From positions 775,257 through 839,256 of the forward strand of contig CAVQXH010000004.1 in assembly GCA_963717845.1 (NCBI GenBank): DNA of 64,000 nucleotides, read 5' to 3'. The notes below the pieces were generated by a model that was not told the origin of the DNA, did no database searches, and saw only the letters and a list, made by a program, of their open reading frames with translations. Position numbers and translations under genes: made by a program. Of the stretch, positions 50,000 through 52,079 are shown piece by piece. This DNA is from an uncultured Actinomycetes bacterium (lineage in GTDB: Bacteria; Actinomycetota; Thermoleophilia; Gaiellales; JAICJC01). Every line of letters begins with the position of its first letter. The stretch's first letter is position 1.

Positions 50000-50839
50000 A
50001 TGCAACACTCCCAAACTCTCCCGTTCCTGAGCCGAATCCCGCCCGGCGGCTGCGTGCCGTCGAAGGAGCCGAACCTTTGGGCTCAGGTAATCGCCTTCGC
50101 GAACCAGAAGGGCGGCGTGGCCAAGACCACGACCACCCTCAACCTCGGCGTCGCGCTGGCAGAGCGTGGAAAGCGCGTGCTGACGGTCGACCTCGACCCG
50201 CAGAGCAACCTGACCATGAGCCAGGGCATCGATCCCGAGGACCTCGAGAAGTCGATGTTCGACGTGCTGGTGCACAAGACGCCGATGGAGGAGATCATCG
50301 CGACCTGCGAGGTCGACCTGGCGGTGTCGAGCATCGACCTGGCCGGCGCCGAGCTGGCGATGTCGTCGATGATCGGCCGCGAGCGGGCGCTGCAGAAGGC
50401 GATTCTGCCCGTGCGCTCGGTCTACGACTACATCCTGATCGACACGCCGCCGTCGCTCGGCCTGCTCACGATCAACGCGCTCACGGCCGCCGACGGCGTG
50501 ATCGTGCCGGTGCAGTGCGAGTACCTGTCGCTGCGCGGGCTGATCCAGCTCGAGAACACGCTTGCGATGATCCGTGAGAACCTGAACCCGGATGTGCGCA
50601 TCAAGGGCATCCTGCCGACGATGTTCGACGCCCGCACGCTGCACGCGCGCGAGGCGGTCGAGATCCTGCAGGAGAACTTCGGCACGCTGGTCTTCGACAC
50701 CCGGATCAAGAAGACGGTGCGCTACGCTGAGGCGCCGGTGAAGGGTACGTCGGTGCTCAAGTACGACTCCAACGGGAACGCGGCCAGGGCGTACCGCGAT
50801 CTGGCCGGGGAGGTGCTTCGCAATGGCAAAGCGCCATAG
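50000..50839 (+). CDS. parA: ParA/Soj family ATPase (true start probably near 50077)
   Basis: [39 protein letters not shown] precedes an out-of-frame TTG at 50077. Confidence 0.9.
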
Positions 50840-52079
50840 CATGCGGGACGGCCCGCTCGCGGCCCTGTTCAAGGCCACGGAGCGCGCCGAGGCGGCGGTC
50901 GAGGCGGCCCACACGGCCGTCGACGAGGACACGCAGGTCGGGATCGAGGCCGAGCGGCCCCGGGTCGTCGATCTGGGCCCGGCCGACGACGAGTTCGGGT
51001 CGGTGGAGGTGCCGTCGGCCCGCAACACGCCCTACCTGGCGGTGATCCGGGTCGTCGGCGTGGGCGGCGGCGGCTGCAACGCCGTCAACCGCATGGTCGA
51101 CGCCGGCATCGGCGGGGTCGAGTTCATCGCCGTCAACACCGACCTGCAGCAGATGCAGATGTCGGACGCGACCGTCCAGATCCACATCGGCCGCCAGCGC
51201 ACGCAGGGGCTCGGGTCGGGCGCCGATCCCGAGGTCGGCCGGCAGGCCGCCGAGGACTCCCACGACCGCATCAAGACCGCGCTGCGCGGCTCGGACATGG
51301 TGTTCGTGACCGCGGGCGAGGGTGGCGGCACCGGCACCGGCGCCGCGCCGGTCGTGGCCAGGATCGCCCGCGAGGTGGGCGCGCTCACGGTCGCCATCGT
51401 CACGTCGCCGTTCGGCTTCGAGGGCAACCGGCGCAAGTCGCAGGCGAGCGCGGGCGTGCGCGAGCTGCGCGACGCCGCGGACACGCTGATCGTGATCCCC
51501 AACGACCGGCTGCTCGAGGTGCTCGAGAAGGGCACGAGCCTGGTCGAGGCCTTCCGGGTCGCCGACGACGTGCTGCGCCAGGGCGTGCAGGGGATCTGCG
51601 ATCTGATCACCCTGCCGGGGCTGATCAACCTCGACTTCGCCGACGTGCGCACGATCATGTCCGACGCGGGCAGCGCGATGATGGGGATCGGCATGGCCAC
51701 AGGCGCGCACCGCGCCAACGAGGCGGCCACGCACGCGATCCGCAGCCCGCTGATCGACCACGAGGTCAGGGGCGCCCGCGGCATCCTGCTCGCGATCTCG
51801 GGCGGCAGCGACCTGGCCCTGCACGAGGTCAACGAGGCGGCCGAGGTGGTGCGCGCGGCGGCCGACGACGACACGACGATCATCTTCGGCGCGACGGTCG
51901 ACGAGCGGCTGGCCGGACAGCTGTGGGTGACGGTCGTCGCCACCGGCTTCCCGTTGCCGGGCGACGCGCCGCGCACGGGGCTGCGCCCATCGCGCGAGCG
52001 GGTGCCCGAGCGGATCGAGCCGACCCCACGGCCGCCGGCCGAGGACTTCACGCTCGAGCCGCCGAGCTTCCTGAACTAG
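50823..52079 (+). CDS. ftsZ: Cell division protein FtsZ with an ~70-aa N-terminal extension
   Basis: [35 protein letters not shown]-terminal LEPPSFL. Confidence 0.95.

Follow-up and report, generated by a model that had tools for sequence, protein, structure and literature searches.

Can a ParA-family ATPase and an FtsZ form a division-site positioning system by themselves, with the ATPase-activating peptide carried on FtsZ? The question is raised by two overlapping genes, here named parA2 and ftsZ2, in a 64,000-nucleotide stretch (the window) of contig CAVQXH010000004.1 from an uncultured Thermoleophilia bacterium (assembly GCA_963717845.1). From the sequence of the window, an initial annotation had proposed that FtsZ2 begins with a ParA-partner-like peptide, and had named a second, specialised FtsZ as the alternative. 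On sequence evidence, parA2-ftsZ2 is a two-gene module which arose once and was kept throughout the class Thermoleophilia. The conserved N-terminal head of FtsZ2 is, in our view, rather likely to be the partner peptide of ParA2.

The ftsZ2 open reading frame (ORF; 50823..52079, plus strand) encodes 418 aa and overlaps parA2 by 17 bp with an internal ribosome-binding site, exactly as first described (Table 1). Pfam assigns Tubulin to residues 75-234 (162.7 bits) and FtsZ_C to residues 283-376, and the protein scores 428.4 bits on the NCBIfam FtsZ equivalog TIGR00065 (cut-off 295.2). Two Tubulin-family matches were found in the genome (4 contigs, 80.5% complete): FtsZ2 and a protein of 365 aa, FtsZ1, which scores 437.6 bits on TIGR00065. 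The ftsZ gene usually, if not obligatorily, stands at the end of the division and cell wall (dcw) cluster. FtsZ1 follows MurF/MraY, FtsW, MurG and MurB in the dcw cluster on contig C3, and FtsZ2 lies outside dcw. The dcw cluster therefore keeps its own ftsZ, contrary to a possibility raised at the outset, and the "second FtsZ" part of the initial alternative is true. The absence of parB and dcw genes from the window also held: tblastn with the genome's own MurF/MraY, FtsW, MurG, MurB and ParB and a SepF fragment gave nothing at E<=1e-3, FtsQ and FtsA not being among the queries. SepF was located on contig C3.

The T7 synergy loop N-x-D-x-x-D is required for GTP hydrolysis in the FtsZ polymer. 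In FtsZ2 the G-box reads GGGTGTG, the T7 loop NLDFAD and the C-terminus ...EPPSFLN, which aligns with the PSFL of FtsZ1, and the initial reading of these motifs and of the anchor peptide as intact is confirmed. Among 24 FtsZ2, the G-box GGGTG[ST]G is kept in all, the T7 loop reads N.DF.D in 21 and NLDLAD in the other 3, with both aspartates in 24/24, and 23 end in a ..P.F. tail. By these motifs, FtsZ2 is a catalytically intact FtsZ paralogue, and it could co-assemble with FtsZ1, the two cores being 65% identical. In the G061 lineage (L088/L099), which has a small genome, the FtsZ2 C-terminus lacks the ..P.F. anchor and ends in ...DPDVGPPTT; its tether of about 26 residues was called the shortest, and its branch is the longest in the FtsZ tree.

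What sets FtsZ2 apart is its N-terminal extension, which had been estimated at about 70 residues. The extension is real, and since residue 71 of FtsZ2 pairs with residue 8 of FtsZ1, its length is about 63 residues. Residues 1-19 have a net charge of +3 and residues 20-70 one of about -9 (13 D/E, 4 K/R), in agreement with the basic N-terminus and acidic linker noted initially. The head consensus is [KR]-x-S-[ML]-[KRH]-[DEN]-[GS]-[PGA, or absent]-L-[AS]-x-L-F-[KRQ]-x-[TG]. In an alignment of 25 diverse FtsZ2 (A4), Ser6, Leu12, Leu15 and Phe16 are invariant, and Arg4, Met7 and Thr19 occur in at least 90%. The linker measures 19-129 residues in 24 homologues, is rich in Pro/Ala/Asp/Glu, is net negative in 22/24 and cannot be aligned between families. 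AlphaFold2 (24-row alignment) predicts a helix for residues 11-34 with moderate confidence (predicted local distance difference test, pLDDT, 64-71), with values <50 for residues 34-62, 86-98 for the blocks of the core, and a second drop ahead of the C-terminal peptide (Table 1). A helix in a surrounding of low pLDDT typifies a short linear motif tethered by disordered sequence.

The parA-ftsZ synteny and the N-terminal peptide, whose conservation the initial annotation had left to be checked, are both conserved class-wide. FtsZ2 matches were found in 41/41 genus and order genomes, nearly always two per genome (the tally includes G016, from which no locus was used). Of the 30 best order-level loci, 29 include upstream DNA (L034 begins inside ftsZ), and in all 29 the next gene upstream is a same-strand parA whose ORF overlaps that of ftsZ. 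A GGAGG-type Shine-Dalgarno sequence stands 7-10 nt before the ATG/GTG which opens the conserved head at 29/29 loci. The genus keeps the 17-nt overlap, and overlaps occur in other families too. At the further class loci, ParA is upstream on the same strand in 47/47 and the overlap is 4-29 nt where both ends are readable; in this set L084 ends before the FtsZ core, and the head pattern missed L089. Flanking genes are kept within the genus only (M48 peptidase at 20/87 loci, methyltransferase at 13/87). The recurrence of the gene pair and its peptide in hundreds of independent assemblies places them beyond chance.

Three or four FtsZ matches were seen in the order genomes G013, G022, G024, G031, G035 and G037. 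Some of these matches are split or interrupted by stop codons, as in degraded copies or fragments of the assembly, and one could be a true additional copy.

A head profile of 34 columns (alignment A1, E<=0.01) matches 236/301 class genomes, distributed by family as 52/52, 56/56, 23/23, 26/26, 21/24, 4/4, 33/55 and 15/55. In a phylum-wide sample it matches 29/401 genomes, all within the class, and 0/369 other Actinomycetota. Ten class genomes, five of them profile-negative, were found to have exactly two Tubulin matches each, so that FtsZ2 is present in 10/10 genomes counted, including small ones of 1.5-1.8 Mb; one FtsZ was found in 5/5 genomes from outside the class (4/4 without G334). ParA is upstream at 10/10 FtsZ2-type versus 0/10 FtsZ1-type loci of the ten class genomes. 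The five profile-negative genomes carry divergent heads behind ParA, for example M-x-DRPSMKDGLSELFRRT, MEKRSSMRDSGLSSLFRAT and MKKKSSLKNSGLADLFRGG.

The carrier of the head is FtsZ wherever it can be identified. A word-indexed search of 5.8 billion proteins using the aligned heads, restricted to longer proteins, returned 5592 matches at E<=1 among 8000 scored candidates. Among the best 120 of these, all that have a Pfam domain have Tubulin, plus FtsZ_C where full length; the rest, for which no Pfam domain is precomputed, measure 81-163 aa, consistent with contig-end fragments, and one 90-aa piece among them is labelled DnaX. The matches include a cultured species, Gaiella occulta, with an FtsZ of 487 aa. 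When 1.84 billion cluster representatives were scanned exhaustively with HMMER, 1038 head matches were obtained at E<=0.001. In most of the best 150 the match begins at residue 1, and the ten longest of these comprise seven with Tubulin, two read-throughs joining a ParA2 tail to an FtsZ2 head, and an FtsZ2 with a frameshift. A PDB search with the head profile gave no match at E<=10. In public databases, head-bearing entries are assigned to Gaiellales, Gaiellaceae, Solirubrobacterales/-aceae, Thermoleophilaceae, Thermoleophilia or unclassified actinobacteria; 385/600 pattern matches in public records were confirmed.

In a maximum-likelihood tree of 31 FtsZ cores, from which L114 (G334) was excluded, 16 FtsZ2 fall on one side of a branch with support 96/94, and FtsZ1 groups with four FtsZ of other actinobacterial classes. 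A tree of 41 ParAs places 17 ParA2 in one group (100/99) and 16 class Soj in another (100/98). Three orphan ParAs of other Actinomycetota join ParA2 on a branch with support 100/97, and Soj groups with ParB-linked ParAs. As judged from this tree, ParA2 is a separate orphan-ParA lineage and no recent copy of Soj. That FtsZ2 and ParA2 each form one group implies that the pair was inherited together.

Reading ParA2 as the parA of the parA-scpA-scpB arrangement, which is known in actinobacteria, was considered and dropped: ScpA lies elsewhere on contig C3 with no ParA match nearby. The idea is also weakened by the best outside-class orphan ParA, whose neighbour is a family-3 glycosyl transferase.

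ParA2 itself scores 203.8 bits on AAA_31 and 98.3 bits on CbiA, and its deviant Walker A (KGGxxK[ST]) and Walker B (ILIDTPP) motifs are invariant across 24 ParA2. It is 42% identical to the genome's own Soj. The description of ParA2 as an orphan holds at this locus, where ftsZ2 and not parB is immediately downstream; it does not hold genome-wide, given a soj-parB pair on contig C1. There the sole ParB_N match of the genome stands beside the Soj-type ParA, and the ParB head reads ...RPRGLGRGLAALV. The soj-parB pair has the same grammar of gene order and overlap (8 nt) as parA2-ftsZ2, which we count as support. The nearest solved chains to ParA2 are 4pfs/5ihp/5if9 (208 bits; labelled "cobyrinic acid a,c-diamide synthase", and presumably mycobacterial ParA-like proteins), 8ray (199 bits) and Thermus Soj (177 bits). 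A basic residue of ParA2 aligns with the arginine in ...SIRLAEAP of the genome's own Soj, which we take to be a DNA-binding residue. Nucleoid binding by ParA2 is suggested by this kept basic residue, the Soj-like overall character and the lack of a C-terminal membrane helix. At L041 (G031) the ParA2 match is in two frames (query 28-71 and 72-278), which reflects either a frameshifted gene or a fault of the assembly; FtsZ2, head included, is unbroken at this locus, and an identical second copy of the FtsZ2 match occurs on another contig.

A structural precedent for the proposed contact exists in Myxococcus xanthus. According to the accessible text of Schnabel et al. 2025 (PMC12462528), residues 1-20 of ParB bind ParA via hydrophobic L11, L15, L18 and I19, the ParA pocket consists of V116, L150, L152, L155, L187 and L192, and the central R13 of ParB rests on Y81, E82, D110 and E117 of the other ParA subunit. 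These positions were mapped through the 8ray alignment onto 17 ParA2, 16 class Soj and 8 outside ParAs. The hydrophobic positions of ParA2 are L/I/M at V116 (class Soj V 16/16), L in 17/17 at L150 (Soj L 13, F 3), L in 17/17 at L152 (Soj L 7, P 7, V 2), I in 17/17 at L155 (Soj V 12, I 2, L 2), M/L/Q at L187, and L in 17/17 at L192 (Soj L 13, V/F/I 1 each). Around the arginine, ParA2 has F/Y at Y81 (Soj Y 11, others 5), D/N at E82 (Soj D 11, others 5) and D/E at D110 (Soj D 14, E 2). At E117 it has Ala in 15 and Ser in 2, acidic in 0/17, whereas 14 of the 16 class Soj are acidic there (Glu 13, Asp 1). This Glu is also absent from the three outside-class orphan ParAs grouping with ParA2. By homology mapping, ParA2 keeps the hydrophobic pocket for a ParB-type peptide and has lost the Glu that holds ParB's Arg. 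Such a combination would fit a partner switch with altered geometry. Variants of ParA2 and of the peptide follow phylogeny, which would confound any co-variation signal between the two.

ATPase-activating peptides are described in the accessible text of two sources as N-terminal, positively charged and disordered, on cargo-linked proteins (PMC7993993; 10.1101/2022.06.09.495121). At the level of sequence, the FtsZ2 head is short, basic, N-terminal and of low-to-moderate pLDDT, its ATPase gene is adjacent, and the two are co-inherited. It is like the ParB head (M. xanthus ParB 1-20, Thermus Spo0J 1-20) in its extreme N-terminal position, basic charge, helical propensity and flexible tether, in having four hydrophobic positions (M7, L12, L15 and F16 in FtsZ2) around a central Arg/Lys (R/K8), and in a gene which lies directly downstream of the ATPase gene and overlaps it. 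The Pro-less variant SMKDGLSELF has the hydrophobic spacing of ParB (0, +4, +7, +8), with the basic residue one position earlier. The two differ in their carrier, FtsZ here versus a parS-binding CTPase in ParB, and in their motif, S-M-[RK]-[DE]-G-(P)-L-[AS]-x-L-F versus L-G-[RK]-G-L-x-A-L-[LI].

What the sequences themselves show is the synteny, the overlapping ORFs, the conserved peptide with its linker, the paralogy, the intact FtsZ motifs and the pocket residues of ParA2. That the head binds ParA2 and stimulates its ATPase, that ParA2 binds the nucleoid, that FtsZ2 co-polymerises with FtsZ1, and which way division is affected are matters of inference. In the mechanism we propose, ATP-bound ParA2 dimers would bind the nucleoid, and FtsZ2, alone or co-assembled with FtsZ1, would form filaments showing many heads on flexible acidic tethers. 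Each head may dock in the cleft of a ParA2 dimer and promote ATP hydrolysis and release. The FtsZ2 filament would then be a multivalent cargo, behaving on a ParA gradient much as ParB-parS complexes or PomXY clusters do, and placement of the Z-ring would be coupled to the chromosome without ParB/parS, PomX/PomY or MinC. No MinC turned up in the genome, which at 80.5% completeness is weak evidence of its absence. The effect on the ring might be positive, by flux-based centring of the PomXYZ kind, or negative, by capture at the nucleoid.

Several points weigh against a fused activating peptide. The basic residue is one position off that of ParB in most FtsZ2, and the extra Pro lengthens the spacing. 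An hhalign comparison of FtsZ2 heads with 13 class ParB heads gave E=0.3 and a probability of 0.2%, which is not significant, with the register as expected and GLGRG-LAALV on the ParB side of the alignment; the likeness is therefore called architectural, and homology is not claimed. Prediction of a complex (ParA2 dimer from alignment A3, 2 ATP, 40-residue head from A4) scored 0.00 twice, which, with no controls and an uncertain fold of the partner, speaks neither for nor against; A3 omits L077, L086, L088 and L097 for a doubtful start or an odd C-terminal end. The head might just as well act as a weak amphipathic helix at the membrane or dock some other protein, and what occupies the intact pocket of ParA2 could be the genome's own ParB, in the way that ParB serves MipZ. 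The outside-class orphan ParAs of the ParA2 lineage have no ftsZ downstream, which implies that ParA2 is not intrinsically dependent on FtsZ2. No cell-division study of any Thermoleophilia organism was found in the searchable literature.

The strongest of the other explanations, which we hold to be unlikely, is that the head is a membrane-targeting amphipathic helix or a docking site and that ParA2 acts on the FtsZ2 core in the manner of MipZ or is driven by ParB; division would remain under the control of the gene pair, only not via a fused activating peptide. On the predicted helix, LxxLF with the K/R behind it makes up a small hydrophobic face, the non-significant likeness to the ParB head fits this explanation, and a genome with one ParB holds a ParA2 with a ParB-type hydrophobic pocket. 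That face, however, comprises just three or four residues, and the invariant Ser6, the near-invariant Met7 and Thr19 and the mostly conserved Gly-Pro favour a specific protein contact over a generic membrane helix. Peptide and ParA2 also co-occur at every locus examined. A ParB-driven ParA2 is at odds with the loss of the Glu for ParB's arginine (0/17 acidic). For a MipZ-like action one can cite a match of ParA2 to the MipZ model PF09140 (49.8 bits), but this is partial, covering profile positions 2-144 of 262 only, and AAA_31 scores far higher (203.8 bits).

Somewhat less probable still is that ParA2 and FtsZ2 do interact, yet outside vegetative division-site choice, as a specialised filament for stress or developmental division, shape or cargo segregation. 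The dcw-encoded FtsZ1 could suffice for division, branches are longer in FtsZ2 than in FtsZ1, the L088/L099 lineage has lost the C-terminal anchor peptide, and a division of labour is described, in the accessible text of the sources, for other bacteria and archaea with two FtsZ. Against this, FtsZ2 passes the FtsZ equivalog model (428 bits) and retains the G-box and T7 aspartates (both 24/24) and the anchor peptide (23/24), and its presence in 10/10 genomes counted, small ones included, is as expected of a core function.

An artefact, whether a mis-called start or a small ORF fused to ftsZ by an assembly indel, can safely be dismissed in spite of the low completeness on only 4 contigs and a likely 1-nt indel at the parA2 start relative to 20 relatives: the in-frame head-linker-core arrangement recurs in many independent assemblies, 236/301 genomes and 1038 cluster representatives, which means that the extension is no indel product, the cultured-species record of Gaiella occulta has it, and the start codon, for which the initial annotation had named a downstream position as a refuting outcome, is shown to be real by the 29/29 Shine-Dalgarno sequences and by the motif at residue 1 in most database matches.

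The features of the locus are collected in Table 1. The parA2 ORF as listed spans 50000..50839, with the stop TAG at 50837-50839, and its in-frame start candidates are ATG 50000 and GTG 50054. In 20 genus relatives the start is TTG (ATG in one), 10 codons 5' of KGG, and is preceded by a GAAGGAG-type Shine-Dalgarno sequence. The corresponding TTG 50077 is out of frame here through one extra base directly after TTG. The extra base within 50070-50085 may be an assembly indel, a possibility raised by a genome just 80.5% complete despite only 4 contigs.

Table 1. Positions of features at the parA2-ftsZ2 locus, in window coordinates
Feature	Position	Strand	Basis or remark
parA2, orphan-lineage ParA/Soj-type ATPase	50054..50839	+	AAA_31; start region compared across 21 genus loci
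Shine-Dalgarno GGGGAGG for ftsZ2	50806..50812	+	Within parA2 3' end; 10 nt 5' of ftsZ2 ATG
parA2/ftsZ2 overlap, 17 nt, predicted translational coupling	50823..50839	+	ORF coordinates
Conserved N-terminal peptide, FtsZ2 residues 1-21	50823..50885	+	Proposed ParA2-binding, ATPase-activating motif
Acidic hypervariable linker, probably disordered, FtsZ2 residues 22-70	50886..51032	+	Charge, homologue lengths, pLDDT
FtsZ2 globular core: GTPase domain (GGGTGTG, T7 loop NLDFAD) and FtsZ_C	51033..51953	+	Pfam, TIGR00065, model
FtsZ2 C-terminal linker, disordered	51954..52040	+	pLDDT <50 for residues 385-412
FtsZ2 C-terminal peptide and stop codon; membrane-anchor type tail	52041..52079	+	Aligns with FtsZ1 PSFL
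Two 41-nt units, each with two 13-nt REP-like palindromes	52085..52172	.	Directly 3' of ftsZ2

The palindromes resembling repetitive extragenic palindromic (REP) sequences (GGGGNCTGNCCCC) occur in 13 copies in the window, compared to 0.16 expected from shuffling. They lie at 48760-48821 and 52085-52172, and also at 26093, 32117, 32985, 36910, 36960 and 40812, the first two clusters flanking a block of M48 peptidase, parA2 and ftsZ2 on both sides. The 41-nt unit with two palindromes is duplicated right behind ftsZ2, and these units are probably a unit boundary or terminator-like hairpins. A promoter and terminator scan of 49700-52500 gave no sites, a result which carries no information given the G+C content. 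Two neighbouring genes for ArsA/Get3-like P-loop ATPases (PF02374, 90 and 108 bits; 46732-48806) stand immediately upstream of the M48 peptidase and are encoded on the minus strand, opposite to it.

Among known systems, PomXYZ of Myxococcus xanthus also pairs a ParA-like ATPase (PomZ) with an N-terminal peptide (on PomX). There, separate PomX and PomY recruit FtsZ, whereas here the proposed peptide is on the FtsZ paralogue itself, with two genes in place of three plus FtsZ. No homology to PomX or PomY was noticed, though no search aimed at it was made. MipZ of Caulobacter likewise is a ParA-family ATPase linking the chromosome to FtsZ, and its Pfam model matches ParA2 in part. MipZ acts on ordinary FtsZ and depends on ParB, while ParA2 scores as a generic ParA and groups with actinobacterial orphan ParAs. 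Like PldP of Corynebacterium glutamicum, ParA2 is an actinobacterial orphan ParA, and in the tree it stands with other such orphans and apart from Soj; the accessible text of 10.1101/2025.07.02.662783 gives PldP a division phenotype and no established partner.

Dual FtsZ systems, such as archaeal and plastid FtsZ1/FtsZ2, resemble the present case in having two paralogues with presumably divided roles, and the N-terminal peptide of cyanobacterial FtsZ in being a lineage-specific conserved FtsZ head (PMC6175996). The accessible parts of these reports mention neither a link to a ParA gene nor a ParB-like peptide on an FtsZ paralogue. The Thermoleophilia duplication is separate from other dual FtsZ, given that FtsZ2 forms one group and FtsZ1 falls with actinobacterial FtsZ. 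No Thermoleophilia FtsZ, and no FtsZ paralogue of any kind, with an adjacent ParA or a ParB-like head was found in the literature, subscription-only papers and supplements being outside the search, and the accessible text of PMC2875224 mentions no such ParA-FtsZ pair. This suggests that the module is new as a variant of the ParA/MinD positioning principle.

To our knowledge, actinobacteria are generally without Min and Noc, and the choice of division site in them is an open question. ParA/MinD ATPases are known to position their cargo by way of short N-terminal peptides carried on adaptors. We also know of no described division system (MinCDE, MipZ-ParB, PomXYZ) which reaches FtsZ other than via intermediaries. 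A more speculative view, to which we give some but clearly lesser credence, is that Thermoleophilia have a minimal two-protein system in which the cytoskeleton itself is the ParA cargo. A filament bundle would surf a ParA2-ATP gradient to mid-cell without ParB/parS, PomX/Y, MinCDE or Noc; a ParB-type head would have been captured by, or have evolved convergently on, a duplicated ftsZ; and the loss of the Glu in ParA2 would insulate it from ParB-Soj. In other Actinomycetota, partners with analogous heads may await discovery for the same orphan-ParA lineage, to which PldP possibly belongs.

If the head is indeed the partner peptide of ParA2, no shorter link between chromosome and Z-ring would be known than this class-wide FtsZ paralogue which carries the peptide itself. 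It would also be a natural case of the "luggage tag" principle for synthetic positioning systems, as set out in the accessible text of 10.1101/2022.06.09.495121. Cultured members of the class exist, among them Gaiella occulta, and the idea is testable with a 25-residue peptide and two purified proteins. For the orphan ParAs of actinobacteria, the module offers a concrete lead on the problem of their partners.

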